A stretch of 64,000 nt of DNA. It comes from Bacillota bacterium. GTDB taxonomy: Bacteria; Bacillota; JAAYKD01. The stretch spans positions 2,784,001-2,848,000 of the forward strand of contig OY762825.2 in assembly GCA_963666425.2 (NCBI GenBank). Reading direction: 5' to 3'. The notes below the pieces were generated by a model. That model made no database searches, was not told the DNA's origin, and saw nothing but the letters and a program-made list of their open reading frames with translations. This document shows, piece after piece, positions 29,062 to 64,000 of the stretch. The stretch's first letter is position 1. Each line of letters begins with the position of its first letter. The translations under genes were made by a program, and so were the position numbers.

Positions 29062-30519
29062 ATGGCAAAACAAAAAAACAGCTGGAGTCTGCCGGGCAAT
29101 AAACAAACGGCCGCAGCCGGCAGCATGAGCTTCAGTGTGCATCAGCAGATAGAAATCACGGCCGATAACATTGGCATCAACGGGGAAGGGGTTGCCCGTT
29201 ACCAAAACCTGGCTGTCTTCTGCGACGGCTTGCTGCCGGGAGAAACCGCCAAAGCCGAAATCAGCGAGATCCATAAAACTTTTCTCCGGGCGAACCTTTT
29301 GGAAATCTTGCTCAGCTCGCCGCAGCGGCAGCAGCCACCTTGCCAATACTATGCGCAGTGCGGCGGCTGTCAGCTGCAGCATTGGCAGTATGAAGCGCAA
29401 ACAGCCTGGAAAGAACTGCAGGTGAAAGAACAACTGCGGCGTTTGGCTAAAATTGAACCCGAACTGCAGCCGATTTTGGCAGCAGAACAGCCCTATGCCT
29501 ACCGCAATAAGATTCAGATGCCAGCGGGTCTGCAGGACGGCAAAAAAGTGATTGGTTTATACGAAAATAACAGTCATCGCATTGTCGACATCAAACGCTG
29601 TTTGCTGCAGTCTCCTTTGGGCAACAAAGTGCTGCAAATTGTACGGGAAGAAATTTTTCAGAGCAAGATATCCTTTTATAACGAAACTGCCAACAGCGGT
29701 TTGTTGCGCCATATCATGATTCGCACCAACCGTGAAGACACGCTTGCTCTGCTGACACTCGTGATCAACGGACTGACCATTCCGGATGAAAAGCAAATGA
29801 TTGAAAATTTAGTGCAGCAGATTCCGGAACTGGGCGGCATTGTCTTAAACTACAACACAGAAAAAGGCAATACCGTACTGGGCGAAAAGAGCAGATTGCT
29901 CTGGGGCTTTGATACGCTGGAAGATCAGATTGGCGAGGCGACTTTTCTTGTTTCGGATCGCTCCTTTTTCCAGGTCAATCGCTTTCAAACCGAACGGCTC
30001 TATCAAATTGTGGCCGCCTATGCTAAAAAAGCAGACGCGGTTCGCTTGCTGGATGCTTACTGCGGCATCGGTTCCATCGGCTTATTCTTAGCCAAATGGC
30101 AAGGAAACGCAGAAATTAAGCCAAGTAATCTAGATTTAAAGCAGATTATCGGGGTGGAAATTGCTGCGGTGGCAGTTAAAGACGCGGAGAAAAACGCCCT
30201 GCAAAACCGGGTCAGCAATGCCAGCTACTATACCGGCAAATGTGAGGAAGTCTTACCGAAATTGGCGCAGCAGGGGATAACATTCGATTGCGCCGTTTTC
30301 GATCCACCCCGTCAGGGCTGCCAGCCGGAATTCCTGCAGGCAATTGCCAAAGCCAAAATCAATAACCTGATCTATGTCAGCTGTAACCCAAATACTTTGG
30401 CGCGCGACGTGGCGCTCCTGCGTGAACTGGGCTATGAAGTGATCACCGGCCAGGCAGTGGACATGTTCCCGATGACAACACATGTTGAGTGTGTGGTGTT
30501 AATGGAGCGCCGGGATTAA
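29062..30519 (+). CDS. rlmD: 23S rRNA m5U1939 methyltransferase RlmD (RumA)
   Basis: TRAM domain, CGGCQLQH, SFFQVN, LDAYCGIG, DPPRQG, YVSCNP and DMFPMTTHVE motifs. Confidence 0.95.
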   Translation: MAKQKNSWSLPGNKQTAAAGSMSFSVHQQIEITADNIGINGEGVARYQNLAVFCDGLLPGETAKAEISEIHKTFLRANLLEILLSSPQRQQPPCQYYAQCGGCQLQHWQYEAQTAWKELQVKEQLRRLAKIEPELQPILAAEQPYAYRNKIQMPAGLQDGKKVIGLYENNSHRIVDIKRCLLQSPLGNKVLQIVREEIFQSKISFYNETANSGLLRHIMIRTNREDTLALLTLVINGLTIPDEKQMIENLVQQIPELGGIVLNYNTEKGNTVLGEKSRLLWGFDTLEDQIGEATFLVSDRSFFQVNRFQTERLYQIVAAYAKKADAVRLLDAYCGIGSIGLFLAKWQGNAEIKPSNLDLKQIIGVEIAAVAVKDAEKNALQNRVSNASYYTGKCEEVLPKLAQQGITFDCAVFDPPRQGCQPEFLQAIAKAKINNLIYVSCNPNTLARDVALLRELGYEVITGQAVDMFPMTTHVECVVLMERRD

Positions 30520-30604
30520 TTCATGCATGCATCGCATGCAAATCATGGCGAAGCCACTTCATGACGCGAAGCGTCAATTAATGCGCGCCTCGCGCGCAAA
30601 TCAT
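30518..30604. repeat. Cluster of four mini-hairpins joined by AATTCAT-like linkers
   Basis: AATTCAT-GCATGC atc GCATGC-AAATCAT-GGC gaa GCC-ACTTCAT-GACGC gaa GCGTC-AATTAAT-GCGCGC ctc GCGCGC-AAATCAT. Confidence 0.75.
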
Positions 30605-30669
30605 TATCTTAGTAATTGGGTAACTCCAGCATATGGAGAAGATCTATGTGAAAAGAAGGAGTGTTTTTA

Positions 30670-30966
30670 ATGCAATACTTGGTCACCGGCTATGACTACA
30701 CTGACAAAGATGCTATTAACCGCAGGCTGTCGGTTCGAGAGGCGCATATGGCTGGAGTAGAGGCTGCGGTTGCTACCGGGCAGTTTTTATACGGGTTGGC
30801 ACTTTTGAATGAGGCTGAAAAAATGATTGGTTCGATCCTGGTTGTGAACTATTCCACTCGGGAGGAACTGGATGCTTGGCTTGCCATAGAGCCTTATGTG
30901 ACGGGTAAGGTGTGGGAGCGTATCGAAGTGGTTCCATGCCGTGTGGCCCCGATTTTCATGAAGTGA
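30670..30966 (+). CDS. YciI family protein
   Basis: RRLSVREAH, MIGSILVV and EPYVTGKVW motifs. Confidence 0.85.
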   Translation: MQYLVTGYDYTDKDAINRRLSVREAHMAGVEAAVATGQFLYGLALLNEAEKMIGSILVVNYSTREELDAWLAIEPYVTGKVWERIEVVPCRVAPIFMK

Positions 30967-31079
30967 TTCAAATGCATCCCCTCTTGAAAAAATAAATAAT
31001 TCAAGCATGATTATATCATTTTTGTCTACTATAGCCATGTGGTGTGTATGTTTATTCAACAGAAAAGAAGGGTAAATAG

Positions 31080-31433
31080 ATGTTATTCATGATGATTGTA
31101 AAAGCATCTACTAATTCAGAGGGCATTAACCTCCCTCAGCGGAAACTTGAAGCCATGATGGATCAATATAATCAAGATTTAGTGAATGCAGGTATTCGAG
31201 TAATGGCGAAAGGACTTCATCCCAGTTCTGAAGGAATTCGTTTTTCTCATGTTAAATCGGGTGAAGAGCCAATCGTAAGCTATGGTCCGTTTGAACCGAC
31301 GAAAGATGTTGTGGCAGGTTTCTTCTTGATTGATGTTAAAACGAAAGAAGAAGCTATTGAATGGGCTCGAAAAGTTCCGGACCCCATGGGTAATGGTGAA
31401 GGGCAAATCGAATTAAGACAAGTGTGGGAATAG
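31080..31433 (+). CDS. YciI-related DGPF-domain protein
   Basis: GLHPSSEG, YGPFEPTKDVVAGFFLI, EEAIEWA and IELRQV motifs. Confidence 0.85.
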   Translation: MLFMMIVKASTNSEGINLPQRKLEAMMDQYNQDLVNAGIRVMAKGLHPSSEGIRFSHVKSGEEPIVSYGPFEPTKDVVAGFFLIDVKTKEEAIEWARKVPDPMGNGEGQIELRQVWE

Positions 31434-31527
31434 ATAGAAATTGACAATAGTATTCGCCTTAAAATGCGGGTTTACAATAACAGAATAAATTTACGAAATT
31501 TCAAAACTTAAAAATACAAGGAGAAAA

Positions 31528-32859
31528 ATGCAATTTAAAGAACTAAACATTATTCCATCAATCCTCAAGGCTCTGGAAAACGAAAACTACATAATGCCTA
31601 CGCCAATACAAGAACAGGCAATCACACCCATTCTGAATGGCAGAGATCTGCTCGGATGTGCACAAACAGGCACAGGGAAAACAGCAGCATTTGCTGTTCC
31701 TATCTTGCAGCTTCTGAGCGCTAAGACTGAAATAAAAACTACCTCTCGGAAAATTCGAGCTTTAATCTTGACTCCGACAAGAGAGCTTGCTCTTCAGATA
31801 TTTGAAAGCTTTCGCACCTACGGACAATATACAGGCTTGCGCTACGGTGTCTTATTTGGCGGCGTTTCTCAAAAACCGCAAGAACATATGCTGCAAAATG
31901 GAGTTGATATCTTGGTGGCAACTCCCGGCAGACTTGACGATTTGTTTAATCAGAGATTGGTTGATTTAAGATCTGTCAGCATCTTCGTGCTGGATGAAGC
32001 GGACCATATGCTGGATATGGGTTTTATCCATGACGTTAAAAAAATCATCGCGAGAATTCCTGCAAAAAGGCAGACGCTGCTCTTTTCTGCCACAATACCG
32101 CTTGAAATTTTGAAAATGGCGAACTCTATCTTAGTCAACCCTGTCAAAATAGCCGTGACACCGGAATCCCCTGCCGTTGAGATGATTCAGCAGTCTCTTT
32201 ATTTTGTTGATAAGAAAAACAAAATGGATTTACTACTGCATATTTTGCAGGATAAATCGGTTACTTCTGCCTTGGTGTTTTCCCGGACAAAGCATGGAGC
32301 AAACAAGATTGTGCAAGAATTAACCTATGCTCATATTAAAGCGGATGCAATTCACGGCAACAAGTCTCAAAATGCGCGTCAATTAGCACTGGATAATTTT
32401 AAAAGTAAATTGACGCGTGTGTTGGTGGCAACCGACATTGCAGCACGTGGAATTGATATCGATGAGCTCTCCCATGTAATTAATTATGAACTGCCCAATA
32501 TTCCGGAGACATATATCCATCGCATCGGGCGAACCGGCAGAGCAGGGCTTGGCGGTGTAGCACTTTCTTTTTGTGATATCGAAGAGAAGCCCTTCCTCGC
32601 GGCGATTGAAAAATTAACCGGTAAGAATATCACTGTGGTGACGGATCACCCGTATCCCATGCTGATTACAACGGCCCCTCCCAAGGCTGCTAAGCCCAGG
32701 TATATACCACGGGAAACGGGAGTTGCTGCGCATCCAATGCGCGCAAGAATTTCAAACGGAGTGAAAACCGAACAGAAACATACTGAAATAAAAGCGGACC
32801 AGGGTAAAAAAGGCATCGACCCTACAAAAAAGAAATTTCATAATTACTATAAAGGTTAA
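31528..32859 (+). CDS. DEAD-box RNA helicase (RhlE-like)
   Basis: AQTGTGKT, PTRELA, DEAD, SAT and HRIGRTGRAG motifs. Confidence 0.93.
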   Translation: MQFKELNIIPSILKALENENYIMPTPIQEQAITPILNGRDLLGCAQTGTGKTAAFAVPILQLLSAKTEIKTTSRKIRALILTPTRELALQIFESFRTYGQYTGLRYGVLFGGVSQKPQEHMLQNGVDILVATPGRLDDLFNQRLVDLRSVSIFVLDEADHMLDMGFIHDVKKIIARIPAKRQTLLFSATIPLEILKMANSILVNPVKIAVTPESPAVEMIQQSLYFVDKKNKMDLLLHILQDKSVTSALVFSRTKHGANKIVQELTYAHIKADAIHGNKSQNARQLALDNFKSKLTRVLVATDIAARGIDIDELSHVINYELPNIPETYIHRIGRTGRAGLGGVALSFCDIEEKPFLAAIEKLTGKNITVVTDHPYPMLITTAPPKAAKPRYIPRETGVAAHPMRARISNGVKTEQKHTEIKADQGKKGIDPTKKKFHNYYKG

Positions 32860-32879
32860 GTTTTGTTATTTATAACGAT

Positions 32880-32935
32880 CTAAGCTACGATATTACGATT
32901 ACAACTCCGGTGGAGATGTTCGCGAGGAGAAGCAT
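32880..32935 (+). repeat. Weak degenerate fragment resembling an rlmD 3' region
   Basis: Translates SYDITITTPVEMFARRS versus GYEVITGQAVDMFPMTT in rlmD. Confidence 0.4.
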
Positions 32936-33068
32936 TTTTTGTGTGCCATGCAAACCGAGCCATTATATTCGTGAAGCAAGTACTATCAGATTTTTAGACA
33001 TTTCAAGGGAGAATGAAAACCCTAGAGAGAAACGATATAATGGAATTTTAGAGAAGGAGGCAGTAGTT

Positions 33069-33938
33069 ATGATGGATTTGGAACAGTATCAACTGATTCT
33101 TGAGTCTTCACCAAATATGATATGGAGGGCTAATCTAAGTACAGAATGTGATTACTTTAATAAAACATGGCTTAGATTCACCGGACGCACGATGGAAGAG
33201 GAGTATGGATTTGGATGGGCTAAAGGTGTGCATCCGGACGATTATGACAAATGTGTAAAAATTTATCTTGATAATTTTAAACTTCAGCATCCATTTGAAA
33301 TGGATTATCGTCTGAAAAGATATGATGGTCAATACAGATGGATTAATGATCTCGGGGTCCCTTTTTATGATAAGAATAATAATTTTATTGGCTTCATCGG
33401 CAGCTGCATGGATGTTACAGAGAAAATTGAAGGTCAACTACTCAAGGAGATGGCACAAAATGACAGCTTGTGCCAAACATATAACCGGCAGTATTCTCTC
33501 CAATTACTATCAGAGGTTTTCAACGAAGCGCTCAAAGCCGGGTTGCCACTTTGCGTTTTATTGATGGATATAGACGGATTTAAAATCATTAATGATAATT
33601 ATGGACATAGTTCTGGAGATATAGTTCTCGCAAAAGTTGCAGCCATAGCAAAAAGCGAGATGCGTGAATTTGATATTCTTGGGCGTTATGGTGGAGATGA
33701 ATTTGTAATTGGGTTGGTTCATACGAATTTTGAAGCAGCACTTATGCTCGCTGAACGTATCAGGACTGCAATTGCAGATGCTGAGATAGCTGTTCTTAAT
33801 ATAGCACCCATTAAGGTTAGTGTAAGCATCGGAGTGAGGTGTCTTCAGAGTGAAATGACTCTTGATGAACTCATCAACAATGCTGATAAAAAGTTATATG
33901 AGGCAAAATCAAAAGGTAAGAATACAGTCAAGGGATAA
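33069..33938 (+). CDS. PAS-domain diguanylate cyclase
   Basis: PAS_3 (YFNKTW, VHPDD), DIDGFKIIND, RYGGDEF and SVSIG motifs; AAGGAGG RBS. Confidence 0.92.
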   Translation: MMDLEQYQLILESSPNMIWRANLSTECDYFNKTWLRFTGRTMEEEYGFGWAKGVHPDDYDKCVKIYLDNFKLQHPFEMDYRLKRYDGQYRWINDLGVPFYDKNNNFIGFIGSCMDVTEKIEGQLLKEMAQNDSLCQTYNRQYSLQLLSEVFNEALKAGLPLCVLLMDIDGFKIINDNYGHSSGDIVLAKVAAIAKSEMREFDILGRYGGDEFVIGLVHTNFEAALMLAERIRTAIADAEIAVLNIAPIKVSVSIGVRCLQSEMTLDELINNADKKLYEAKSKGKNTVKG

Positions 33939-33939: not shown

Positions 33940-34075
33940 ATGTTCCAGGGGGACGGGGGTGTTGGCACAGAGTTTCGGTAGCCTCGTTATGCTGAAAATC
34001 GAAAACACCGTCAGTATCAAACCTACAATTTGGTTAAACATGTCTCAGCAAGAAGATTAGGAACATTTAAACGTG
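33940..34075 (+). repeat. G-rich boundary motif copy 1 plus ~105 bp extension shared with copy 2
   Basis: ATGTTCCAGGGGGACGGGGGTGTTGGCACAG begins 2 nt after the DGC stop; near-identical to 35160-35295. Confidence 0.9.
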
Positions 34076-34113
34076 CGCGTCTTCGATCAGGCTCGGCGTT
34101 TTTTAGCCAACCT

Positions 34114-34264
34114 CTGATCTATATCAGCTGCAGCCAGAGCATAAAGGTGTGCGACGTTGCCTTCTGCATGAGCCAGGTTAAAGTGGTCACCAACCATGCA
34201 GTGGTATGTTCTTATGACGACACATGCGGAGTAAGCCGTATTGATGTCAAGGGTGCAGCGATAA
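34114..34264 (+). pseudogene. Degenerate copy of the rlmD 3' end
   Basis: ctgatctatatcagctgc...gtggtcaccaaccatgcagtggtatgttcttatgacgacacatgcggag aligns to rlmD 30367-30519 (LIYISC vs LIYVSC). Confidence 0.8.
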
Positions 34265-34303
34265 TTGGCATTCGTAAAATAGATAATAAGGGTGCGGTAA
34301 CAG

Positions 34304-35157
34304 ATGGATAGATATTTTGAGATAAAGAAACGCTTATTAAGTATTTGTATTAGCGATGACAACGTTTGTGCAGTAATTGCCATTGGTTCGTCTGTCAGAA
34401 ATTATTCAAGGCAGATGAGTATTCCGATATGGATTTGATTCTTGCGTGTAAAAACCCAGATGAATGGCTTTTTGGCGAACAGTCTGCTAAACTCGGAAAG
34501 ATCAAAATATCGTTTGTCGAACCAACACTCGGTGGAGGGTTGGAGCGAAGAATATTATTTGACGGTTCACTTGATGTTGACCTAATTGTATTTACTCCCG
34601 AACAGCTTGAAACAGCAATAATAAACGGAGTTGCCTCCGAAGTTATGAACCGAGGATATTCCGTGCTATATGACAATATTGGTATTACTGAAATCATTGA
34701 TGACAATGTTGAGATATGTGTTCCTCATGCTGTTATGACCGAAAACGAGTTTATTAATATGGTAGGTGATTTCTGGTTTCATACCATATGGTCATCGAAG
34801 AAAATACTTCGTGGGGAGTTATGGGCAGCAAAAATGTGCATTGACTCATATTTAAAGAACTATCTTCTGAAAATTATCGAACTATACGAAACTTCTTCTA
34901 AACAAAGCGATGTATGGCACAACGGTAGATTTCTTGAAAAATGGGCAGGAGAAGAAATAATTGAAGCGCTTGGTGCGTGTTTTGCTCACTATGAAAAAGA
35001 AGATATTGTTTCAGCACTTATAAACACGGCAATGCTTTTTGGTAAAATTGCTCGCAATGCAGCAGAACTATGCTGTTACGTTTATCCAGCTGAGTCTGAA
35101 GATTATGCCTGCTCGCTTTTGGAAGAGTATTTTCATCATACTGTAAATATCGTCTAG
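34304..35157 (+). pseudogene. Aminoglycoside 6-adenylyltransferase-like nucleotidyltransferase (AadK/AadE family), frameshifted near 34405
   Basis: ATG at 34304 gives MDRYFEIK...AVIAIGSSVR. ADEYSDMDL, KKILRGELW and VWHNGRFLEKWA continue in another frame. Confidence 0.75.
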
Positions 35158-35159: not shown

Positions 35160-35295
35160 ATGTTCCAGGGGGACGGGGGTGTTGGCACAGATTTTCGGTA
35201 GCCTGGTTATGCCGAAAATCGAAAACACCGTCAGCATCAAACCCGCAATTTGGCTAAATATGTCTTAGCAAGAAGATCAGGAACATTTAAACATG
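35160..35295 (+). repeat. G-rich boundary motif copy 2 plus extension
   Basis: Same 31-mer, beginning 3 nt after the preceding stop; direct repeat of 33940-34075. Confidence 0.9.
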
Positions 35296-35311
35296 CAAGC
35301 AGAGTAAAAAA

Positions 35312-35428
35312 GCACGCGACGATGCACCTTTGCGTGGGCTTGGTTAAAATAGTCACCGGCCAGGTAGTGGGTATGTTCCCCATGAAGATATATGTGGAGT
35401 ATGTAAAATTAATGTCGACGGTAGATAA
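35312..35428 (+). pseudogene. Degenerate copy of the rlmD 3' end
   Basis: gtcaccggccaggtagtgggtatgttccccatg translates IVTGQVVGMFPMKIYVEYVKLM versus VITGQAVDMFPMTTHVECVVLM in rlmD. Confidence 0.85.
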
Positions 35429-35613: not shown

Positions 35614-37251
35614 ATGTCCAATAAAGACGAATTTAACAAAAACCAACAAATTGCTGTGGATTTTTTAAAGAGCAGTGAGACCAAGGAAAAATTAGCAGAA
35701 ATCAATGATGCAATTTGGTCTTATGCGGAATTAGGATTAGAGGAATTTAATACCGCAAACCTACTCGTAAATTATCTGGAAAAAGAAGGATTCAAAGTTG
35801 AAAAAGGAATCGCCGGAATGCCAACAGCCTTCCTTGCTTCTTTTTCTAACGGCCCTGGGCCAACAATTGGCATATTGGGTGAGCTGGATGCACTGCCAAT
35901 GCTGTCTCAAGAAGCAGGCAACCCTGCGCACGCACCCATGACAGAAATAAAAGGTGCCATAGCACCGGGCCATGGTTGTACCCACAATACAATGGGTACT
36001 GCGGCTGCCGGTACGGTGGTAGCAGTTAAGAAAGCGATGGAAGCCGGCGGATTTACAGGAACGATTAAAATGTTTGGCAGCCCCGCTGAAGAAACAGTCA
36101 TCAGCCGTCCTTTCATGGTTTATGCCGGATTATTTGATGATGTAGATGTTGTCATCGATAACCATGGCGGAGATGGCTTTGGCACCTCTTTTGGAGTAGG
36201 CAGCAATACCAATTGGTCCTTCTCCGTTACCTTCCGCGGAAAAACAGCCCACTCTGCCGGAGCCCCTTGGGTTGGAAGATCTGCCCTAGACGCAGCTCAA
36301 ATCATGAACATCAGTACCGAATACCTGCGTGAACATTTACACTACACCTCCAGATTGCATTATGTCATGACCGAAGGTGGAGAAGGCCCGAACGTCGTTC
36401 CGGATAGATCAACCACCTGGTATTATGTAAGAAATTCCGATAAATTAATCAAATCCGATTTCGAAAGAGTGCTAAACTGTGCAAAAGCGGCTGCCCTTGC
36501 CACAGATACTCAAATGGAAATTACCCCCTATACTGCAATCCATCAATGCTATAGAAATGAAACTTTAGCCAATATGGTTCAGGAAAATATTAAAAGGGTG
36601 GGAATGCCTGCCTGGACTGAGCAAGAGCAAGTATTCATCAAAGAATTACAAAAAGGTGTAGGCGCAGAAGAAAAAGGCTTGCCTGATGATTCGGCAATTG
36701 AGGATAAACCCAAAGGAGAAGCCGCGGTATTTGTGGGCGGTGGCTCTTCCGACATTGGTGAAGTTTCTTTAGTTGTGCCTTTGACATCTCTGCGTTTCCC
36801 AACTTCTGCCCCGGGAGCCATTGGCCATCACTGGACGACAACTGCAGTAACCGGTTCCACGGTTGCTCATAAAGGTGTGATCGCGGGAGCCCAAGTCATG
36901 GCGATCAGTGCCATTGAACTTTTGACCAATCCTGATAAAGTAGCTGAGATCAAAAAAGATTTCAGAAAGATGCAGGAAGAGCATTTCTATAACTACAAGA
37001 ATGACGGCAAGGCTTTAATACTGGATGAGAACGGTAAGGCACAATTTGAATCTTACCTGCCCTATCTATTTGGTAAAGCAGGAAAATACGAATATGATCC
37101 TAAAAACGGAAAATTCTTTGTTGCGGAAGGCAAAGAAGTTGCTCCGCCTGTAGGATTCTTAAGTGAACAAATGTCTAAATATCGCCGTCAAATGGCGAAA
37201 CATTACCAGACACCGGCGTGGTATGATGGACCCGAGATGATAAAGGAATAG
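35614..37251 (+). CDS. M20 amidohydrolase, AbgB-like (p-aminobenzoyl-glutamate hydrolase subunit B)
   Basis: ELDALP, GHGCTHN, GSPAEE, GRSALDA and GSSDIGEVS motifs. Confidence 0.88.
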   Translation: MSNKDEFNKNQQIAVDFLKSSETKEKLAEINDAIWSYAELGLEEFNTANLLVNYLEKEGFKVEKGIAGMPTAFLASFSNGPGPTIGILGELDALPMLSQEAGNPAHAPMTEIKGAIAPGHGCTHNTMGTAAAGTVVAVKKAMEAGGFTGTIKMFGSPAEETVISRPFMVYAGLFDDVDVVIDNHGGDGFGTSFGVGSNTNWSFSVTFRGKTAHSAGAPWVGRSALDAAQIMNISTEYLREHLHYTSRLHYVMTEGGEGPNVVPDRSTTWYYVRNSDKLIKSDFERVLNCAKAAALATDTQMEITPYTAIHQCYRNETLANMVQENIKRVGMPAWTEQEQVFIKELQKGVGAEEKGLPDDSAIEDKPKGEAAVFVGGGSSDIGEVSLVVPLTSLRFPTSAPGAIGHHWTTTAVTGSTVAHKGVIAGAQVMAISAIELLTNPDKVAEIKKDFRKMQEEHFYNYKNDGKALILDENGKAQFESYLPYLFGKAGKYEYDPKNGKFFVAEGKEVAPPVGFLSEQMSKYRRQMAKHYQTPAWYDGPEMIKE

Positions 37252-37341: not shown

Positions 37342-37356
37342 ATTGTGAGCGTAGCC

Positions 37357-37383
37357 AATTTATGACGCGAAGCGCCAAGTCAT
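37357..37383. repeat. Single copy of the GCGAAGC mini-hairpin unit
   Basis: AATTTAT-GACGCGAAGCGCC-AAGTCAT, matching the unit at about 30556-30582. Confidence 0.6.
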
Positions 37384-47055: not shown

Positions 47056-47060
47056 CCAAT

Positions 47061-51447: not shown

Positions 51448-52332
51448 GTGAATAGCAGCATGAATATTCAAAAACCTAATGATATAGATCCCCTGAAAAA
51501 AAACGAACGTGATCGGTCTAATTTCGTCCGAGAATTGGTACAATCCCAACTCAATAAACCAGTTCAAGCGTTCGCCACGCACATAGTGCCACCACCTAAA
51601 CGTATTGTACAATTCTGGGATGACCTTGATCGATTGCCCCTGGATGTTAAGGAGTGTATGGCTTCATGGAAAATACTCGAACAATCGGGATTCGAACTCC
51701 AGGTTTTTGATGAAAACTCAACGAGGGAATTTATACGAGTTCATTTGGGTTCAAGATATGAAAAAGCTTTTGACAAGTGCTATCACCCCTCTATGAAGTC
51801 AGATTATTTCCGTTACAGCTACATTTATATAATGGGTGGCTTTTATATTGACGCAGACGACATATATCATGGCGAGAGAATAGATAACCTCTTCATTGAT
51901 GGAAGGTTGAAACTTCAACCGTTCTGCTACGACATTGTAACTGCCCAAATGGTTCCACCTTCAGTTTTTGTCAGTATAGGGGAAGTCAACCTTAACTGGA
52001 TTCATTATTTCAATACCACGCCTATGATAGCAGGTCCCAATCACCCTATTATAGAGCGTGCACTACGGAACGCGACGGAAGCCCTTGAACAGGAATTATA
52101 CGGAGAATTGCCTGAAGTCCAAGCAACCACAGGCCCAGGTAATCTCACAAGGTCTATATTTGAGGTAGTCAGCGAGGGATGTTGCTCTGAGGAAACGATA
52201 ATGGTTGTGCACGATTGGGAGAAAATTTCTACGAGTAAATGGCCACTCAGTTATCGAAATGATAAGAGAAACTGGAGACTGTCAAATCAGCAAACCTATC
52301 AAGTGTCACGGGATACGGAGGAGGAGAAATGA
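51448..52332 (+). CDS. DXD glycosyltransferase (GT32/Och1-like)
   Basis: PKRIVQFW, KSDYFRY, GGFYIDADD and TTGPG motifs. Confidence 0.82.
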   Translation: MNSSMNIQKPNDIDPLKKNERDRSNFVRELVQSQLNKPVQAFATHIVPPPKRIVQFWDDLDRLPLDVKECMASWKILEQSGFELQVFDENSTREFIRVHLGSRYEKAFDKCYHPSMKSDYFRYSYIYIMGGFYIDADDIYHGERIDNLFIDGRLKLQPFCYDIVTAQMVPPSVFVSIGEVNLNWIHYFNTTPMIAGPNHPIIERALRNATEALEQELYGELPEVQATTGPGNLTRSIFEVVSEGCCSEETIMVVHDWEKISTSKWPLSYRNDKRNWRLSNQQTYQVSRDTEEEK

Positions 52333-54518: not shown

Positions 54519-54561
54519 ATACAAGATAGATAGAGAATATCAATTCAAGCGAGGTGGAATA

Positions 54562-56172: not shown

Positions 56173-56285
56173 CTGGGTAGATACGAATAATGTTGATATC
56201 CATACTGAAGATATTTTGAATAAATCGATTTTCCGCCAAGGGGGGTAGCAGAGTAACACGACCTCTTTTTTACTGCTACAAGCCG

Positions 56286-56316
56286 CATGGAGACTGCCGT
56301 GTTGATGTGTGCATAA
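56286..56316 (+). mobile_element. attR-like junction: displaced rlmD C-terminal codons
   Basis: C-ATG GAG ACT GCC GTG TTG ATG TGT GCA TAA is identical to the end of the rlmD copy at 62774-62804; upstream sequence is unrelated to rlmD. Confidence 0.7.
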
Positions 56317-56345
56317 GTGATTTTTTATGCAGTAAGGAGAAACAA

Positions 56346-56825
56346 ATGGAACAAATTTTTATGAGCTTTCTAAACACGGTTCCCGAACACTTAAGACCTT
56401 TCGTGAGCGAAATCGACGCTTATCTGCTAGACAAAAACTGCAAAAGAAGCATTAAGCCCGCGGCAAAAGGATACCTGGTTTCCTATGCGTTGCCGGTTTC
56501 AAAGAAAACGCTGCTCAATTTTGTATTTAGGAAAGGCTGTGTCAAGGCAAGAATTTATGCGACGCATGTAACAGAATATGAAGAACTGGTCAGTGGATTT
56601 CCCGAAGCAACAAAGAAAGAGATAGCGGCCGCCCTTGAATGCAAAAAGCTGACCGGACTGACCTGCAGCCCGACCTGCCCTGCCGGATATCAATTTGTGA
56701 TGGACGGTGTGGAATACAAGAAATGCCGCAGTATGGCTTTTCTTCCCATACTGAATGAGGAAAATAACCCTTTCATAAGAAAAATGATCGAAGCAGAAGT
56801 TTGTTGTTCAATGACGGACAGATAA
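56346..56825 (+). CDS. Hypothetical protein with Cys cluster, copy 1
   Basis: AAGGAG RBS; differences between copies are mostly synonymous; CKKLTGLTCSPTC...KKCR. Confidence 0.75.
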   Translation: MEQIFMSFLNTVPEHLRPFVSEIDAYLLDKNCKRSIKPAAKGYLVSYALPVSKKTLLNFVFRKGCVKARIYATHVTEYEELVSGFPEATKKEIAAALECKKLTGLTCSPTCPAGYQFVMDGVEYKKCRSMAFLPILNEENNPFIRKMIEAEVCCSMTDR

Positions 56826-56857
56826 ACCTTAATTTGGATTATGCCGAGGTGCAGAGA

Positions 56858-57406
56858 ATGGTTATTTACAGAGAGTTGACAGAGTGTGATATCCTTGATG
56901 CTGCCATGTTGAAAGCATCATGCTGGGATGAAGAAACTGCAGGCACATCAAGCGAAAAACCTGATATTGTTAAAGAGCATACTTCATTTGTTAAGTGGAT
57001 GAAGACAGCGGATGAAAATGCTGATGTCCGTTTGTTATATGGTGCTTTTGATGACGAAAAGATGGTTGGCACAGTTTTTGCCAGCTTTGTCGAGTCTAAA
57101 GATGCTCCCGAACACGGATTTGAGTTGAATGGACTCTGGGTGGATCAGGGGTATCGCCGTCGGGGGATAGCATTGACTTTGCTGAAAAAAGTATGCGAAG
57201 AGTTTAGAAAACTAGGAGCAAAGAAAATGATTGTCTACAATTATCACATTGCTCCGTCAAACAGTTTTTACCTTAAATTTGGGTGTAATGTCATCTCTAC
57301 GGAATATCAAACAAAAGATAGGCTGCAAACCGATATCATCGAAGGAAATATTGAAGATCTGATCACGAGATTATCCGTGTCGCTTCAGAAAGTGGTCTCG
57401 AGATAA
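56858..57406 (+). CDS. GNAT acetyltransferase, copy 1
   Basis: LWVDQGYRRRGIA and NSFYLKFG motifs. Confidence 0.85.
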   Translation: MVIYRELTECDILDAAMLKASCWDEETAGTSSEKPDIVKEHTSFVKWMKTADENADVRLLYGAFDDEKMVGTVFASFVESKDAPEHGFELNGLWVDQGYRRRGIALTLLKKVCEEFRKLGAKKMIVYNYHIAPSNSFYLKFGCNVISTEYQTKDRLQTDIIEGNIEDLITRLSVSLQKVVSR

Positions 57407-57455
57407 TTGTTCCATCGAAAACAATGCGATAAGTCCAATTCGCCTGGCCATCAGT

Positions 57456-57485
57456 ATGTTCCAAGGGGACGGGGTGCTGGCACAG
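57456..57485 (+). repeat. G-rich boundary motif copy 3 (variant)
   Basis: ATGTTCCAAGGGGACGGGGTGCTGGCACAG. Confidence 0.85.
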
Positions 57486-57680
57486 ACTCACAAATTATCG
57501 ATTTATTCTCCGGATAAGGTTTCGTCTTACTTGCAGTAAAACTTTGATCTGATAAGCAAAAACATAAATTTTTTGACAAACCCAAGAATGCAGATCATTG
57601 GTTTATTGCAGCATTGCACATTCTAAATATCATGGACAAATTAGATGTCATCGAAAGCTTTTCACCTCCGGGTAGTCAAC

Positions 57681-58359: not shown

Positions 58360-59247
58360 ATGGGAAAGAACATTTTCAAAAAAAGAATAATATTGTACTT
58401 AGCTCTTATTTATTCCTTTCTTTTTATCGGGTGGTTGTCAATATTGGCATTTTCAAATGCGTATATAATAGTATGGGGACTTTTTAGTATATTTCCAATT
58501 ATAGCAACTATTATTACCAAGAAGATTACCAAAGATCAATTCCCATGGCTTCTAAAACCAAATTTTAAGAAAAATCGGAAAATCTATTTGTTTTCAGCGT
58601 TTGCTCCGGGACTTGCCATATTCATTGGAGCAATGGCGTTTTATTTGTTATTTCCAAATGATCTGGATTTCAGTGGCAGGTATATAGTTGAAAATTATTC
58701 ACAGTATGGAGCTCCTGCTGCTCTGCATCTCACGATTGGGAATATAGTTACTATTGGCATTGGCGCAATAATAATTTCACCTTTCATTCTGCCAGTACAC
58801 ATTTTTGCTTTAGGAGAAGAAATCGGTTGGAGGGGATATTTATTACCACTTCTTCTGCAAATCACAAGTACAAAAAAAGCAGTTTTACTTCATGGATTCC
58901 TTTGGGGGATTGCTCATGCTGCATTGATATACTTTGGTTTTAATTATTCTATGGATTACTGGGGAGCTCCTTATTCTGGCATGATTATGATGATATTTGT
59001 ATGCGTGGTGTTAGGTATTTGGCTTGCTTATGTTACCATAAAATCAGGAAGCATTATTCCAGCGACCATACTACATGGAGCATCAAATGTTATTGGTGAG
59101 TTACCTATAATGGTATCCTTATTAAGTGTGAGCCGATTACTAGGCCCTAATCCAACAGGGATTATTGGTTTGAGTGGTTTGATATTGGGAGCAGTGCTTT
59201 TATTACAGAGAATGCCAAAAAATAATGATAAATTCGGAATGCCATAA
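58360..59247 (+). CDS. CPBP (CAAX/Abi) intramembrane glutamic endopeptidase
   Basis: GEEIGWRGY, WGIAH and HGASN motifs; multiple TM segments. Confidence 0.9.
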   Translation: MGKNIFKKRIILYLALIYSFLFIGWLSILAFSNAYIIVWGLFSIFPIIATIITKKITKDQFPWLLKPNFKKNRKIYLFSAFAPGLAIFIGAMAFYLLFPNDLDFSGRYIVENYSQYGAPAALHLTIGNIVTIGIGAIIISPFILPVHIFALGEEIGWRGYLLPLLLQITSTKKAVLLHGFLWGIAHAALIYFGFNYSMDYWGAPYSGMIMMIFVCVVLGIWLAYVTIKSGSIIPATILHGASNVIGELPIMVSLLSVSRLLGPNPTGIIGLSGLILGAVLLLQRMPKNNDKFGMP

Positions 59248-59487
59248 ATCAAGATAGCAACGTTGAGTGAAATTGATACTTACTCTCTAGAATGGGCATT
59301 CCGGTTTTCAGCGAAAATCCGATAAACCGCTCTGGTTTCAACCCTCGCTGATGCAAAACGAAGCCAAGCTGTGGTAAAAGTTCTTTCCTTACAATTTTTG
59401 TATGCATACGATGGACGAGTGCAACGAGATTCTTACAGTGAAAGGCTTTGACAAACTAGTCGGTAGAAACAAAGGGGGTTTGATATT

Positions 59488-61671
59488 ATGACGCAAGAGG
59501 AATTTTCTGAGAAATTCCTGTCACATCTGAATAAACAGCAAAAAGAAGCGATCCAGGCAGTCGATGGTGCAGTACTTCTGCTTGCTGTTCCCGGGAGCGG
59601 AAAAACGACAGTGCTGGTGACCCGGCTTGGTTATATGGTCTACTGCCGTGATATTGCCCCGCGTAGCATTTTGACAATGACATACACTGTAGCCGCCACC
59701 AAGGAAATGCAGCAGCGTTTTTCCTCTATGTTCGGCAGTGAATACGCCGAGATTTTAGAGTTTCGCACCATCAACGGCTTGTCCGCAAAAATCATAAATT
59801 ACTACAGCCGGAACTACGGAAAAGGGAGCCCTTTTGAATTGCTCGATAATGGTGGCGAATTGGCACGAATGGTAGGACGGATTTATCAAGAAATTAATGA
59901 CGAGTACGCTACCGAGAGTACAATCAAAGATATCCGTTCTAGCATCACCTACATCAAAAATATGATGCTCACAAAAGAAGGAATAGATTCTCTCGATGTA
60001 GGCATTCTGCAGATGCCGCAGATATACAATCAATACTGTTCGGAACTTAAGCAGAGAAGACTCATGGATTACGATGACCAGATGTCGTATGCGCTTAACA
60101 TTCTCAAATCAGTCCCTGCAGTCCTTGAGCACTTTCAAGAAAAGTATCGCTACATCTGCGTTGATGAAGCTCAGGACACATCAAAAATACAGCATACCAT
60201 TATCCACCTGTTAGCACAAAAATACAGCAACATCTTTATGGTCGGTGATGAGGATCAGAGTATTTACGGTTTCCGTGCTGCCTACCCTGATGCACTAATG
60301 AGCTTCAGCAAGAACTACCCCAAGGCAAAGGTGCTGCTGATAGAGTATAACTATCGCTCTACAAAAGAAATCGTGACTGTGGCGAATGCGTTTGTGTTAA
60401 AAAATAAATTTCGCTATAAAAAAGTCATCAAACCAACCCGTGGCAACGGACTCCCAATACAGGTAATCCAGGCCGCTGATCGTTCAACGCAGTATAAATA
60501 TCTTTTTACTGTTGCACAGACCTGTGAAACCGAAACCGCTGTCTTGTTCCGCAATAATGACAGCGCCTTACCGCTCATTGATATGCTTGAGCGCAACAGC
60601 ATTCCTTACAATTACAGACAACTTGATGGAGTCTTCTTCTCCAATCGTATCGTTGTCGATATAACAGACATTATAAACTTTGCATATAACCCGCATGATG
60701 CAGATGCCTTCATGCGTGTATACTATAAATTCGGCAAGTATTTGAACAAAATAGCGGCTATCTATGCTTGTGAACAGAGCAAACGCTCTGGAAAGCCGAT
60801 TCTTGACGAACTGATCAATTTTCCGGAACTGAGCAGCTTTGCCAAGGAAGGTGTAATCAGTCTTCTGGCACTTCTGCCGATGATAACAAAAAGCAACGGT
60901 ATTAAAGCCGTCCAGCTGATATGGAATACGTCAGGTTATGGCCAGTATGTAACTGCCAATAAGCTAGATGCAGGAAAGTTTGCAACCCTATGTATGCTCG
61001 GTGAAAACGAGGCAAGCCCACGCGACCTACTTCGTAGACTAAAAGAGCTGCGAGACATCATCCAAAATCATAAAAACAGCAACTCCAATCAATTCATACT
61101 GTCCACGATTCACTCAAGCAAAGGGCTGGAGTATGATCGAGTGTTTCTGCTCGATATCTTTGACGGAATATTGCCGTCAAAGGCTGACCCGGACGTGGCA
61201 TCCCAAGAGGAGATCAAACAATACGAGGAAGATCGCAGGCTCTATTATGTAGGTATGACCCGTGCCAGGAATGAGTTGTATCTCTTCAACTGCCGCAATA
61301 CCAATTCTGCTTTTACGAGCGAAGTGCTGCGCTCTCTCCCAAGGGTAATCAAAGCCGCAGGCAGCGCTAGTTCTATATCTAAACGAAGCTTTGGTGATAA
61401 AACCTATACACACAAAGATGAAGCCGCTCCCAAACGAAAGTCCACGAACTTGCAGGGACACATAGAGGAAAAAGAGAAAGCGCGCCAAACTCAAGAACTA
61501 GAAAGTTTGCTGTTGAAGATGACCGCTGGCGGGGCTGTAACGCATAGAGTATTCGGCAAAGGTGTGATTACGGAAAATGACGGAACTTATGTTACCATCC
61601 GTTTTAGATCAGTTGGAGAAAAGAAATTCAACCTGATAATGGCAGTGCAGCATGGAGTAATTGAGATATAA
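59488..61671 (+). CDS. UvrD/PcrA-family SF1A helicase (accessory paralog)
   Basis: AVPGSGKTT, VDEAQD, VGDEDQSIYGFR, STIHSSKGLEYD and YVGMTRAR motifs. Confidence 0.92.
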   Translation: MTQEEFSEKFLSHLNKQQKEAIQAVDGAVLLLAVPGSGKTTVLVTRLGYMVYCRDIAPRSILTMTYTVAATKEMQQRFSSMFGSEYAEILEFRTINGLSAKIINYYSRNYGKGSPFELLDNGGELARMVGRIYQEINDEYATESTIKDIRSSITYIKNMMLTKEGIDSLDVGILQMPQIYNQYCSELKQRRLMDYDDQMSYALNILKSVPAVLEHFQEKYRYICVDEAQDTSKIQHTIIHLLAQKYSNIFMVGDEDQSIYGFRAAYPDALMSFSKNYPKAKVLLIEYNYRSTKEIVTVANAFVLKNKFRYKKVIKPTRGNGLPIQVIQAADRSTQYKYLFTVAQTCETETAVLFRNNDSALPLIDMLERNSIPYNYRQLDGVFFSNRIVVDITDIINFAYNPHDADAFMRVYYKFGKYLNKIAAIYACEQSKRSGKPILDELINFPELSSFAKEGVISLLALLPMITKSNGIKAVQLIWNTSGYGQYVTANKLDAGKFATLCMLGENEASPRDLLRRLKELRDIIQNHKNSNSNQFILSTIHSSKGLEYDRVFLLDIFDGILPSKADPDVASQEEIKQYEEDRRLYYVGMTRARNELYLFNCRNTNSAFTSEVLRSLPRVIKAAGSASSISKRSFGDKTYTHKDEAAPKRKSTNLQGHIEEKEKARQTQELESLLLKMTAGGAVTHRVFGKGVITENDGTYVTIRFRSVGEKKFNLIMAVQHGVIEI

Positions 61672-61888
61672 ATTTACTGACCATGTTGCGGGCATACGCC
61701 AAGCGGCAGTAATGAAAACCGGATGTCAAGGTGACCGATATGCGGCACAGATAGGCCATCAGATTCTGTTCTCTGAGCGGAACGCTTCGCTGACCGAGAA
61801 CAACATAGGGCATTGATTCGTGGAGCAGTACACAGCTTATATGGACGTTACCCCAAAACACACGCGACAATCAAAATAAATAACATGC

Positions 61889-61935
61889 TTGATTTTCACC
61901 ACTTAAAGCATTATAATTGCTTTAGGTGGTGAAAA
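61889..61935 (+). promoter_or_regulatory. AbiE-type promoter with overlapping inverted-repeat operator
   Basis: TTGATT-17 bp-TATAAT; imperfect IR TTTTCACCACTTAAAGCA / TGCTTTAGGTGGTGAAAA. Confidence 0.75.
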
Positions 61936-61936
61936 T

Positions 61937-62539
61937 ATGATAAAGACGATAGCGATGTTAATGGCTGAACTGAAAGAGTATGTGAATCCAACAGCTAAGA
62001 TCCGGCGGCTCGTGGATGAAGGGAAATTGATTCCCGTTGTCAGAGGTTTGTACGAAACAGATGGGAGCATACCAGGATACTATCTTGCTCCAATTATTTA
62101 CGGACCTTCATATTTGTCTTTTGAATTTGCATTGGCATACTACTCGCTTATTCCAGAAGCGGTATACAGTTTTACATCAGCAACTTTTGAAAAGAAAAAA
62201 GCAAAGCAATATACAACACCCTATGGTACATTTACTTATCGTGATGTTCCAAGCGAAGCATATCCTGCTGGTATTGTTCTGCATTCTGAGAACGGGTATG
62301 GGTTTCAAATTGCGACTCCTGAGAAAGCCATCTGCGATGAACTCTACAAAATTTCTCCTCTAAAGAACAGTGGCGATTTGGAACGCCTTTTATTCGAAGA
62401 CCTAAGAATTGACAAGGAAGAATTCTATCATCTGAAACTATCGGATTTACTTGAAATAGCGGCTCTTTATCACACGCAGAATCACAAGCTGCTGCAGGCT
62501 TATCTCAGAAGGGGAATAAAAAATGGATCAAATTATTGA
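61937..62539 (+). CDS. Type IV toxin-antitoxin AbiEi-like antitoxin
   Basis: wHTH LVDEGKLIPVVRGLY, PSYLSFEFALAYYSLIPE and IATPEKAICD motifs. Confidence 0.85.
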   Translation: MIKTIAMLMAELKEYVNPTAKIRRLVDEGKLIPVVRGLYETDGSIPGYYLAPIIYGPSYLSFEFALAYYSLIPEAVYSFTSATFEKKKAKQYTTPYGTFTYRDVPSEAYPAGIVLHSENGYGFQIATPEKAICDELYKISPLKNSGDLERLLFEDLRIDKEEFYHLKLSDLLEIAALYHTQNHKLLQAYLRRGIKNGSNY

Positions 62540-62558: not shown

Positions 62559-62588
62559 ATGTTCCAGGGGGACGGGGGTGTTGGCACG
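62559..62588 (+). repeat. G-rich boundary motif copy 4
   Basis: ATGTTCCAGGGGGACGGGGGTGTTGGCACG. Confidence 0.9.
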
Positions 62589-62667
62589 GAGTTGGATAAT
62601 CCAGTTTTACTGAGATCCCAAAACGCTTTATGTATCATATGCGCAACTTGATCAGATAAGTTACTTT

Positions 62668-62804
62668 TCAGCTGTAATCCGAACACCCTGATGCGCGAGG
62701 CTGCCTTTCTGCGTGAGCTGGGCTCTGAAGTGGTCATTGGTCAGGCAGTGGATAGGTTCCCCATGACAATGCACATGGAGACTGCCGTGTTGATGTGTGC
62801 ATAA
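62668..62804 (+). pseudogene. Degenerate copy of the rlmD 3' end
   Basis: SCNPNTLMREAAFLRELGSEVVIGQAVDRFPMTMHMETAVLMCA* versus [46 protein letters not shown] in rlmD. Confidence 0.92.
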
Positions 62805-62833
62805 GTGAATTTTTATGCATTAAGGAGAAACAA

Positions 62834-63313
62834 ATGGAACAGATTTTTATGAGCTTTCTAGACACGGTTCCCGAACACTTAAGACCATTCGTGAGCGAAA
62901 TCGACGCTTATCTGCTAGACAAAAACTGCAAAAGAAGCATTAAGCCCGCGGCAAAAGGATACCTGGTTTCCTATGCGTTGCCGGTTTCAAAGAAAACGCT
63001 GCTCAATTTCGTATTTAGGAAAGGCTGCGTGAAGGCAAGGATTTATGCGGCACATGTAACAGAATATGAGGACCTCGTCAGTGGATTTCCCGAAGCAACA
63101 AAGAAAGAGATAGCGGCCGCCCTTGAATGCAAAAAGTTGACCGGACTTACCTGCAGCCCGACCTGCCCTGCTGGATATACATTTGTAATGGACGGTGTGG
63201 AATACAAGAAATGTCGCAGTATGGCTTTTCTTCCCATACTGAATGAGGAAAATAACCCTTTCATAAGAAAAATGATCGAAGCAGAAGTTTGTTGTTCAAT
63301 GACGGATAGATAA
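62834..63313 (+). CDS. Hypothetical protein with Cys cluster, copy 2
   Basis: Near-identical to 56346-56825. Confidence 0.75.
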   Translation: MEQIFMSFLDTVPEHLRPFVSEIDAYLLDKNCKRSIKPAAKGYLVSYALPVSKKTLLNFVFRKGCVKARIYAAHVTEYEDLVSGFPEATKKEIAAALECKKLTGLTCSPTCPAGYTFVMDGVEYKKCRSMAFLPILNEENNPFIRKMIEAEVCCSMTDR

Positions 63314-63345
63314 ACCTTAATTTGGATTATGCCGAGGTGCAGAGA

Positions 63346-63894
63346 ATGGTTATTTACAGAGAGTTGACAGAGTGTGATATCCTTGATGCTGCCAGGTTGA
63401 AAGCATCATGCTGGGATGAAGAAACTGCAGGCACATCAAGCGAAAAACCTGATATTGTTAAAGAGCATACTTCATTTGTTAAGTGGATGAAGACAGCGGA
63501 TGAAAATGCTGATGTCCGTTTGTTATATGGTGCTTTTGATGACGAAAAGATGGTTGGCACAGTTTTTGCCAGCTTTGTCGAGTCTAAAGATGCTCCCGAA
63601 CACGGATTTGAGTTGAATGGACTCTGGGTGGATCAGGGGTATCGCCGTCGGGGGATAGCATTGACTTTGCTGAAAAAAGTATGCGAAGAGTTTAGAAAAC
63701 TAGGAGCAAAGAAAATGATTGTCTACAATTATCACATTGCTCCGTCAAACAGTTTTTACCTTAAATTTGGGTGTAATGTCATCTCTACGGAATATCAAAC
63801 AAAAGATAGGCTGCAAACCGATATCATCGAAGGAAATATTGAAGATCTGATCACGAGATTATCCGTGTCGCTTCAGAGAGTGGTCTTGAGATAA
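63346..63894 (+). CDS. GNAT acetyltransferase, copy 2
   Basis: Near-identical to 56858-57406. Confidence 0.85.
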   Translation: MVIYRELTECDILDAARLKASCWDEETAGTSSEKPDIVKEHTSFVKWMKTADENADVRLLYGAFDDEKMVGTVFASFVESKDAPEHGFELNGLWVDQGYRRRGIALTLLKKVCEEFRKLGAKKMIVYNYHIAPSNSFYLKFGCNVISTEYQTKDRLQTDIIEGNIEDLITRLSVSLQRVVLR

Positions 63895-63943
63895 TTGTTC
63901 CATCGAAAACAATGCGATAAGTCCAATTCGCCTGGCCATCAGT

Positions 63944-63973
63944 ATGTTCCAAGGGGACGGGGTGCTGGCACAG
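63944..63973 (+). repeat. G-rich boundary motif copy 5 (variant)
   Basis: ATGTTCCAAGGGGACGGGGTGCTGGCACAG. Confidence 0.85.
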
Positions 63974-64000
63974 ACTTGCTGTCACCCACTCAACTCAATT

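Follow-up and report, generated by a model that had tools for sequence, protein, structure and literature searches.

Copies of the rlmD 3' end and a genus-specific REP element in a variable accessory region of a Bacillota bacterium

Downstream of the rlmD gene of a Bacillota bacterium (NCBI GenBank assembly GCA_963666425.2, here genome G000), fragments of the 3' end of that gene alternate with a short G-rich motif and with unrelated genes. Do the two repeats belong to one cassette system, or has the locus been built in another way? The DNA analyzed (the window, 64,000 nt) comprises C1:2784001-2848000, where C1 is the 2.9-Mb main contig; coordinates given without a contig position in Mb or a colon refer to the window, unless a second contig is named. 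The intact rlmD gene (29062..30519, + strand) encodes a 485-aa 23S rRNA m5U1939 methyltransferase with the Pfam domains tRNA_U5-meth_tr and TRAM, which scored 398.8 bits on NCBIfam TIGR00479 rumA (cut-off 183.55). A first-pass annotation had described the DNA behind it as an integron-like array of small non-autonomous cassettes, accreted at two kinds of site: the gene end and the motif. The motif was found to be a genus-specific repetitive extragenic palindromic (REP) element with a cognate REP-associated tyrosine transposase (RAYT), dispersed throughout the genome, and it does not serve as an array-specific site. We consider it somewhat probable that this REP/RAYT system overlaps with a second, unrelated repeat system, produced by serial site-specific insertions at rlmD.

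The G-rich motif as a REP element

BLASTN identified five copies of the motif in the window, all in the + orientation, in agreement with the first-pass annotation. The copies at 33940, 35160 and 62559 are exact over 28 nt (0 expected, 100 shuffles), and those at 57455 and 63943 carry a 1-nt deletion each. Copy A (33940..33969) is located 1-2 nt past the stop codon of a cyclase gene, copy B (35160..35189) follows at a distance of about one gene, and copy C (62559..62588) adjoins a breakpoint, at 62557, between C1 and the haplotype represented by contig C4. A duplicated unit ends at the 3' edge of the copy at 57455..57486, and the array runs on past the window beyond the copy at 63943..63974. 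A degenerate REP-like remnant was recognized by eye at ~56226-56255.

A genome-wide search with a 24-nt motif pattern, allowing up to two mismatches, gave 105 matches (46 forward and 59 reverse), compared to 0 for the reversed control; a regular-expression count gave 109 copies. The core of the motif (29 nt) is at least 95% conserved at nearly every position, with the exception of the fourth base of the left arm. Two 7-nt arms, forming an imperfect inverted repeat, enclose a G-rich centre of 15 nt, and the fourth pair is mismatched in 60 of the 109 copies. Forty-five of the 109 are placed no more than 60 nt from another copy, typically head to head. The sister species (G001), of the same genus, carries 28 copies, while none was found in 29 more distant relatives.

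A gene with a Y1_Tnp domain (C1:435734-436066, RAYT span 435.4-436.1 kb; PF01797, 47.9 bits) was identified ~2.4 Mb from the array. It scored 78.1 bits on NF047646, "REP-associated tyrosine transposase", slightly under the cut-off of 80, and is bracketed by inverted REPs (L051 5299(+), 5337(+) and 6260(-)). The copy number, the occurrence on both strands, the restriction to the genus and the Y1 gene between inverted REPs identify the motif as a REP element. The proposal that it is a second dedicated cassette site was therefore abandoned, since 86 of the 108 copies detected by BLAST (E<0.01) fall outside the stretch of C1 from rlmD to the contig end, and the RAYT gene of the element lies far from the array. 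A second, weaker RAYT-like gene is present on the - strand at C1:532979-533518 (L057:680-1219; NF047646, 68.8 bits).

The REPs are unevenly distributed. On C1, 61 of 87 are located in six of the 59 50-kb bins (0-100 kb, 400-500 kb and 2.80-2.90 Mb), and these bins flank the replication terminus, as inferred from GC skew, on both sides. The first-pass annotation had named, as an outcome that would speak against it, a motif scattered over the genome without any link to rlmD tails or to breakpoints in gene content; the motif is indeed scattered, but within the array it is linked to the tails and to three of six haplotype breakpoints.

Two further observations concern REPs elsewhere in the genome. 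Four head-to-tail REPs with a period of ~33 nt are present at C1:469063-469183, with similar runs on C17 (22117-22217). In C8:10924-12783, a multi-copy insertion sequence (IS) of the DDE_Tnp_1_6 type (at least 7 copies) starts 8-12 nt from a REP, and it is absent at the matching REP site of C1 (C1:442161-442195).

Folding of the REP and of the junction modules described below as single-stranded DNA gave no significant result (z-scores of -0.98 to +0.21), and RNAalifold on 10 modules yielded 12 pairs, none with compensatory changes. A second hairpin considered for the spacer was dropped, as neither analysis gave support for it. The idea that REPs in general carry a spare copy of the preceding gene end was examined by comparing the 200 nt upstream with the 500 nt downstream of each of the 109 REPs, and was also rejected: similarity was found in only 6, all in tandem-repeat tracts. 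A search of Rfam (28000-64000, gathering thresholds) returned no family.

The rlmD tails and their origin

The part of rlmD that is repeated downstream extends from the Y-V-S-C-N-P codons (the catalytic cysteine motif) to the stop codon (30367..30519, + strand; alignments and translation). BLASTN with the rlmD 3' end matched the + strand of the window at 62668-62795 (76%, E 3e-20), 34114-34232 (72%, E 2e-9) and 35312-35404 (73%, E 7e-9). Tail A (34095..34262; BLASTN and nhmmer, its sequence being part of the profile) is decayed, with four deletions totalling 5 nt, which is no multiple of 3, and tail B (35294..35426; nhmmer and BLASTN) has a deleted 5' end compared to the C4 haplotype. Tail C (62638..62804; BLASTN, nhmmer and translation) can be read without interruption or indels as an alternative C-terminus in frame, 45 codons long and followed by a stop. 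All three lie on the + strand. At least four copies had been annotated in the window. Besides these three, the copy placed at 56286 is merely the last ~30 nt of a tail (56278..56311, +), which gave no direct BLASTN match to rlmD and is recognizable from the 95% match of 56278-56577 to 62766-63065. A weak fifth copy reported at ~32880 was found neither by BLASTN nor by the tail profile at E<=0.1.

The tail profile was built from nine tail or rlmD-end sequences, and matches to these nine are therefore by construction. In a search of the 3.2-Mb genome, it matched only the + strand of C1 at 2,814,330-2,880,981 and the matching strand of C4, and nothing elsewhere. The non-rlmD matches on C1 number eight; all have the + orientation and fall in the first 67 kb past rlmD. 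Matches outside the training set are located at C1 2859835 (E 5e-15), 2880901 (2e-5), 2866407 (4e-4) and 2851618 (7e-4), and at C4 8845 and 169. A 327-nt repeat (84%), comprising a tail end and ~270 nt, occurs at C1 2851617-2851942 and 2855211-2855533 (L046:3617-3942 and 7211-7533), upstream of two unrelated genes, for an amino-acid permease and a DUF1003 protein; it may represent a leader or promoter region that the two have in common.

Tails A, B, C and D begin within ~10 nt of one rlmD position, the Y-V-S-C-N-P codons, and extend to the stop region, giving a repeat length of 130-150 nt. All tails carry residues typical of the RlmD of this genus and not of other genera. Tail C is 75-80% and tail D 62-68% identical to functional rlmD ends, compared to 59% between C and D; both are thus nearer to live rlmD ends than to each other, which fits independently displaced ends.

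As the first-pass annotation had stated, motif and tail alternate: each clear tail in the window lies 79-156 nt downstream of a motif copy. On C1, a REP or the 3' half of a REP is present 50-156 nt upstream of six of the eight non-rlmD tail matches. Given a REP density of about one per 4 kb in this region, this linkage is far beyond chance. The two repeats are joined by a spacer, which after REP A occupies 33970..34094 (class 1, +; part of the REP plus spacer repeat); REP plus spacer at 33940-34076 is 92% identical to that at 35160-35296. Terminator-like hairpins with T runs were recognized by eye in the spacers, directly before the tails. The order gene, REP variant, spacer, rlmD tail was also found in a related metagenome contig (L023).

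No enzyme that could account for such junctions was found close by. The genome, which is 98.5% complete, contains no Resolvase (PF00239) or Recombinase (PF07508) domain. Its one full Phage_integrase match is an Xer-like enzyme ~680 kb away, which scored 92.5 bits on TIGR02249 (integron integrase, cut-off 265) and 218 and 190 bits on XerC and XerD, respectively, both under the cut-offs. None of the genome-wide searches (Resolvase, Recombinase, Phage_integrase, Y1_Tnp) returned a match within the window. Pfam scans of open reading frames (ORFs), 23 in the window, 51 at C1 2.848-2.903 Mb and 23 on C4 (at least 90 aa outside the window), detected no recombinase, integrase or transfer gene, and the only transposases found were of the IS21 and DDE types. 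The earlier statement that the window holds no recombinase is thus valid for the families searched and for the 23 + strand ORFs, the - strand ORF at 45298-46341, which overlaps an HsdR fragment, not having been scanned. With no recombinase of the searched families in the array or the genome, any such enzyme would have to act in trans.

Site-specific insertion with replacement of the gene end classically leaves repeats of the target-gene 3' end between one block and the next. From these repeats, the known accretion of recombinase-less units and the status of rumA/rlmD as an integration hotspot, we infer serial insertion at rlmD. Units would have entered one after another at a single site ~150 nt ahead of the stop, on or close to the SCNP codons; each would have supplied a replacement gene end and pushed the former end downstream. 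The units would lack a recombinase, in the manner of cis-mobilizable elements (CIMEs), and would share a right-end module composed of REP, spacer and terminator; later reshaping may have involved module duplication, deletion, IS insertion and block replacement. The tails most likely arose by site-specific recombination, with the crossover at about this position and an enzyme that acts, or acted, in trans. The annotated accretion of small non-autonomous cassettes at rlmD can be retained to the extent that the tails mark serial insertions of small units without a recombinase, but with one kind of site and not two.

Several observations weigh against serial insertion. No recombinase able to perform it was found in the genome, and the mechanism is read from the remains of past events. 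A 2-nt deletion is common to tails A and B, inside decayed, out-of-frame copies that are 77-83% identical to each other, compared to 61-74% identity of each to functional rlmD ends; at least that module was therefore copied when already dead, and does not reflect two displacements of live ends. The class of spacer partly tracks the type of tail (class 1 with A and B; class 2 with C, D, F and I), which is more readily explained by copying of the whole module than by crossing-over between spacer and tail. In the L023 contig, the tail starts ~80 nt further upstream, and a DNA search of G001 revealed no extra tails. Finally, in the published rumA junctions (PMC4701971, PMC4120198), the crossover falls on a GA within the 11th codon counted from the end and the repeats are 2-21 bp long, whereas here the proposed position is ~48 codons from the end and the repeats are 130-150 nt, a length for which the published site alone does not account. 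The rlmD genes of G000 and G001 do, however, diverge from the codon after a conserved GAG, and one duplicated unit starts no more than ~12 nt from that codon. These conflicting points would be brought together if the crossover lay inside the tail or on its 3' side, or if modules recombined with each other in the Campbell manner.

Extra tails were likewise not found when the G000 protein was compared by tblastn to the rlmD loci of 12 relatives (L024-L035) and to 8 loci from genomes or metagenomes, nor in 9 other genomes of the order. Of the homologues returned by RlmD scans of genome and metagenome contigs, L022 and L023 alone were close; most were distant (34-39%) and had no extra tails. A tail-only match in G008 was discarded, as it results from a contig end that cuts the gene. 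The rlmD stop codon lies within ~260 nt of a contig end in 5 of 27 relatives with an RlmD match (G005, G012, G022, G025 and G029), which indicates that assemblies often break just past rlmD.

Gene content and haplotypes of the accessory region

The accessory region starts inside the rlmD 3' end, has a low GC content and is variable between strains and species. If C1 is circular, it is ~92 kb long, the window covering its proximal third. The GC content is 0.42-0.43 across the region, compared to 0.47-0.50 nearby. rlmD and 1.5 kb upstream of it are 90.8% identical between G000 and G001, while the array DNA tested (40 kb) gave only two short matches to G001, of 75 nt and 490 nt; partial synteny with the sister species picks up again at ~C1:4.1 kb. 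Just 3' of the rlmD stop lies a GC-rich hairpin segment (30548..30582, +), which is an 83% match to a second copy (37349..37383, +) adjoining the end (37309) of a block shared by C1 and C4. This 35-nt segment was found at two places genome-wide, 6.8 kb apart (2 matches vs 0.07 expected), and the pair may represent a second, different att-like repeat.

All recognizable intact cargo of the window is on the + strand. The first block (30661..33938) comprises two YCII genes and genes for a DEAD-box helicase and a PAS-GGDEF diguanylate cyclase (Pfam). Between REP A and REP B lies an ANT(6)-like nucleotidyltransferase gene (34303..35157; Pfam Adenyl_transf), judged by eye to be frameshifted in C1, which in C4 is an open frame of 247 aa (L050:7626-8369, -). 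It scored 72 bits on the NCBIfam AadS family, far under the cut-off of 450 for known resistance enzymes. Further downstream are a gene for an M20-type amidohydrolase (35614..37251; TIGR01891, 195 bits) and a defence-type block (38700..51063; Pfam) encoding an SF1 helicase, an Mrr-nSTAND3 NTPase, a truncated HsdR C-terminus and an AAA_13 ATPase. These are followed by glycosyltransferase and carbamoyltransferase genes (51448..56172; Pfam), a hypothetical gene with a GNAT gene (56307..57406; Pfam), and genes for a CAAX protease, a UvrD helicase and an AbiEi-like antitoxin without toxin (58360..62539; Pfam, NCBIfam). A second copy of the hypothetical and GNAT genes occupies 62795..63894 (Pfam).

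The latter pair, together with the REP, forms a unit of 1211 nt that is duplicated at 97.7% identity. Further partial duplications are present inside the array, and two of the internal duplications end exactly at the 3' edge of a REP. The smallest units contain one gene and measure 1.2 kb. Beyond the window (C1 2.848-2.903 Mb), 43 of the 51 ORFs, which were crudely called, are on the + strand; 8 encode GNATs, and the others include HAD, NUDIX, APH, methyltransferase, SDR and TetR genes and two IS. The + orientation of all intact cargo, as first annotated, is not a special feature of the array: REP-free bins nearby show an equal strand bias (38:8 and 42:3), the + strand being the leading strand on this replichore, and the orientation is explained by a leading-strand bias of the whole replichore. 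The array genes have upstream regions of 100-400 nt (by eye). Together with the terminator-like hairpins in the spacers, these make the cassettes look other than promoterless.

The expected parts of an integron were not recovered. No intI gene and no attI with a Pc promoter were found, and no attC-type sites were recognized (no attC model was run), the repeat being a genome-wide 29-nt REP and the junction holding an rlmD fragment. With cassettes that do not look promoterless either, the integron-like reading of the array was not upheld.

Gene content varies between haplotypes and relative to the sister species. C4 represents a second haplotype, colinear with C1 at 95-99% identity, in which three blocks are replaced. 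Of the six block boundaries, three coincide with a REP or a tail, and three, in the defence and restriction-modification (R-M) block, do not have a REP. In this block, window positions 38700-47055 of the C1 version (SF1 helicase and Mrr-nSTAND3 NTPase) stand in place of C4 19418-25270 (type I R-M genes hsdS/hsdM/hsdS), both versions being located upstream of the same truncated HsdR C-terminal fragment. An independent run (X18, side 255) yielded a 14.6-kb contig that contains the joint 37309->45323 as well. In C1, the AbiEi-like gene (61937-62539) is followed directly by a REP; in C4 (1508-2972), an AbiEii toxin gene lies between the two.

A second sample, X19, showed the C1 haplotype without change, and X18 did so for that of C4. 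Logan contigs contained no junction indicative of excision or of circles. Logan joints between REP copies had sides of 24-36 nt and were dismissed as repeat artefacts, and a record of X20 joining 30470 (rlmD) to 34237 (the end of tail A), with a depth of 4.5, was too weak to count. Contigs C2, C4, C6, C8, C16 and C17 represent regions of C1 in alternative haplotypes. C3, C7, C10, C12 and C13, with a GC content of 0.56-0.63 and no match to C1, are probably contamination, which was estimated from markers at 6.85%.

Competing explanations and known systems

Homologous recombination offers a different account of the same repeats. After one ancestral insertion, the REP-spacer-tail segment would have multiplied by unequal crossing-over or through Campbell-type integration of circles that bear a copy of it, and ordinary transfer would have brought new cargo to a permissive stretch close to the terminus. 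RecA-dependent exchange can take place between modules of this length (150-300 nt). The deletion shared by tails A and B and the 92% identity of their REP-spacers agree with such copying, as do the duplicated 1211-nt unit, the other partial duplications and a genome without dedicated recombinases of the families searched. A single origin is difficult to reconcile with tails C and D, which are nearer to live rlmD ends, and with the open frame of C; together these point to at least three independent origins. Nor does it account for the left boundaries of the four tails agreeing within ~10 nt, for the L023 tail in another species, or for the different cargo between copies. We regard it as rather unlikely.

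A working gene-capture platform is an equally doubtful explanation. Here, REP, spacer and tail would together form an attC-like site on each small cassette; an enzyme in trans, either the RAYT acting on single-stranded hairpins or a recombinase from other strains or elements, would excise cassettes and put them back at rlmD or at any copy of the module. The units are indeed small, with a REP-to-REP spacing at C1 2.846-2.899 Mb of mostly 0.7-5.9 kb, and the cargo is reminiscent of chromosomal integrons in its 8 GNATs among 51 ORFs and its NUDIX, HAD, APH, methyltransferase and TetR genes, but the terminator-like spacers and upstream regions suggest that the cassettes are not promoterless. The REP core lies within 25 nt of the stop codon of a co-oriented ORF in 30 of the 109 copies and never abuts the start of a divergent gene; however, the element is not array-specific, 45 of its copies stand in doublets or runs as in ordinary REPINs (REP doublets forming hairpins), and since tails occur nowhere else, REPs outside the array show no cassette behaviour. 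That 21 of the 22 REPs in the array are on the + strand is matched by the replichore bias of genes and REPs alike. Three of the six C1/C4 boundaries are at a REP or tail, the other three falling at sites of the defence and R-M block that lack a REP. The two duplications that end exactly at a REP 3' edge, and the deletion in the dead copies A and B, by which the module travels as a unit, also favour capture; against it, the haplotypes were stable in X19 and X18, with no sign of rapid shuffling, and no circle junctions were seen in Logan contigs. Slightly more doubtful still is the full form of this idea, in which the module is the recombination site of an rlmD-anchored capture system of the host, and one- to three-gene cassettes lacking a recombinase are inserted, excised and copied as single- or double-stranded circles by a domesticated RAYT or a trans-supplied enzyme.

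An assembly artefact, in which a mixture of strains caused repeats to be collapsed or chained, is hardly credible: despite the alternative-haplotype contigs, the contamination estimate and short-read unitigs that break at REPs, C1 and C4 independently show the same order of cyclase, module A, ANT(6)-like gene, module B and amidohydrolase, the 14.6-kb contig of another run spans module B into the following blocks, and C1 has a regular GC-skew profile over 2.9 Mb.

The REP/RAYT system itself is of a known kind, in which short palindromic extragenic repeats are associated with a Y1 (HUH) transposase (Bertels & Rainey 2011, PMC3116915, PMC3337134; Di Nocera 2013, PMC3733652). As in those systems, the element is conserved, imperfectly palindromic and lineage-specific, has ~100 copies and inverted doublets, and has a low-copy Y1 gene between inverted copies. 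It differs in its 5' end, which is TGT and not the GTAG or CGTC tag of the two superfamilies mentioned in PMC3733652, in its clustering around the terminus, and in that one subtype sits in a longer module ending in an rlmD tail.

Tandem accretion of ICEs (integrative and conjugative elements), IMEs (integrative and mobilizable elements) and CIMEs at the 3' end of a target gene has been described by the Guedon group (PMC5704250). The features shared with such accretion are repeats of the target-gene end between units, the lack of integration and transfer genes, and growth at one site. The array differs in that its junction relics number at least 8 across 67 kb and that a unit may consist of a single gene; in addition, no integrase-bearing member was found in the genome, and the junctions carry a host REP. 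rumA serves as a hotspot for the insertion of elements that carry one serine integrase, including vanG elements, ICE-r, ICE_..._rumA and IME_SpnAP200_rumA (PMC4701971, PMC4120198). These share with the array the target gene, the location near its 3' end, tandem insertion and replacement of the gene end; they carry a recombinase gene at the element end, while no serine recombinase was found here and the repeats are long and start from the SCNP codons.

The array also shares traits with chromosomal integrons and clusters of attC sites lacking integron-integrases (CALINs), namely small co-oriented accessory genes, a repeat often placed directly after the gene, species specificity and richness in acetyltransferases. 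It differs from them in that no IntI was found, the repeat is 29 nt long and genome-wide, and the units seem to have terminators and upstream regions of their own. attC sites have an R''-L''-L'-R' layout and a length of 57-141 nt, neither of which is shown by the REP core. In staphylococci, SCC (staphylococcal cassette chromosome) and pseudo-SCC islands are stacked at the rlmH (orfX) 3' end with short direct repeats between them, and are moved by Ccr serine recombinases. The anchor there is likewise the end of an rRNA methyltransferase gene, and many units rely on a recombinase supplied in trans; the difference is that no Ccr-like enzyme was found here.

A literature search of main texts found no paper on recombinase-less or integron-like cassette rows at rlmD/rumA. 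What is new at rlmD, read as accretion at the rumA hotspot, is the absence of a recombinase, the length of the tails and a junction module that includes a REP.

The locus holds a lesson for annotation, in that a repeat at cassette ends need not be cassette-specific, and a whole-genome scan is needed to see this. The link between one REP subtype and the junctions provides a testable case for a role of REP/RAYT systems in genome flexibility, beyond that of passengers. Were the capture reading true, REP/RAYT would play in this genus the part that IntI and attC play in integrons. Should the tails record serial insertions, an accessory and defence region of 90 kb is being assembled in this lineage at one codon-level site with no recombinase kept, which would raise the question of who supplies the enzyme, and of whether recombinase-less rows are a general form of gene storage in anaerobes.

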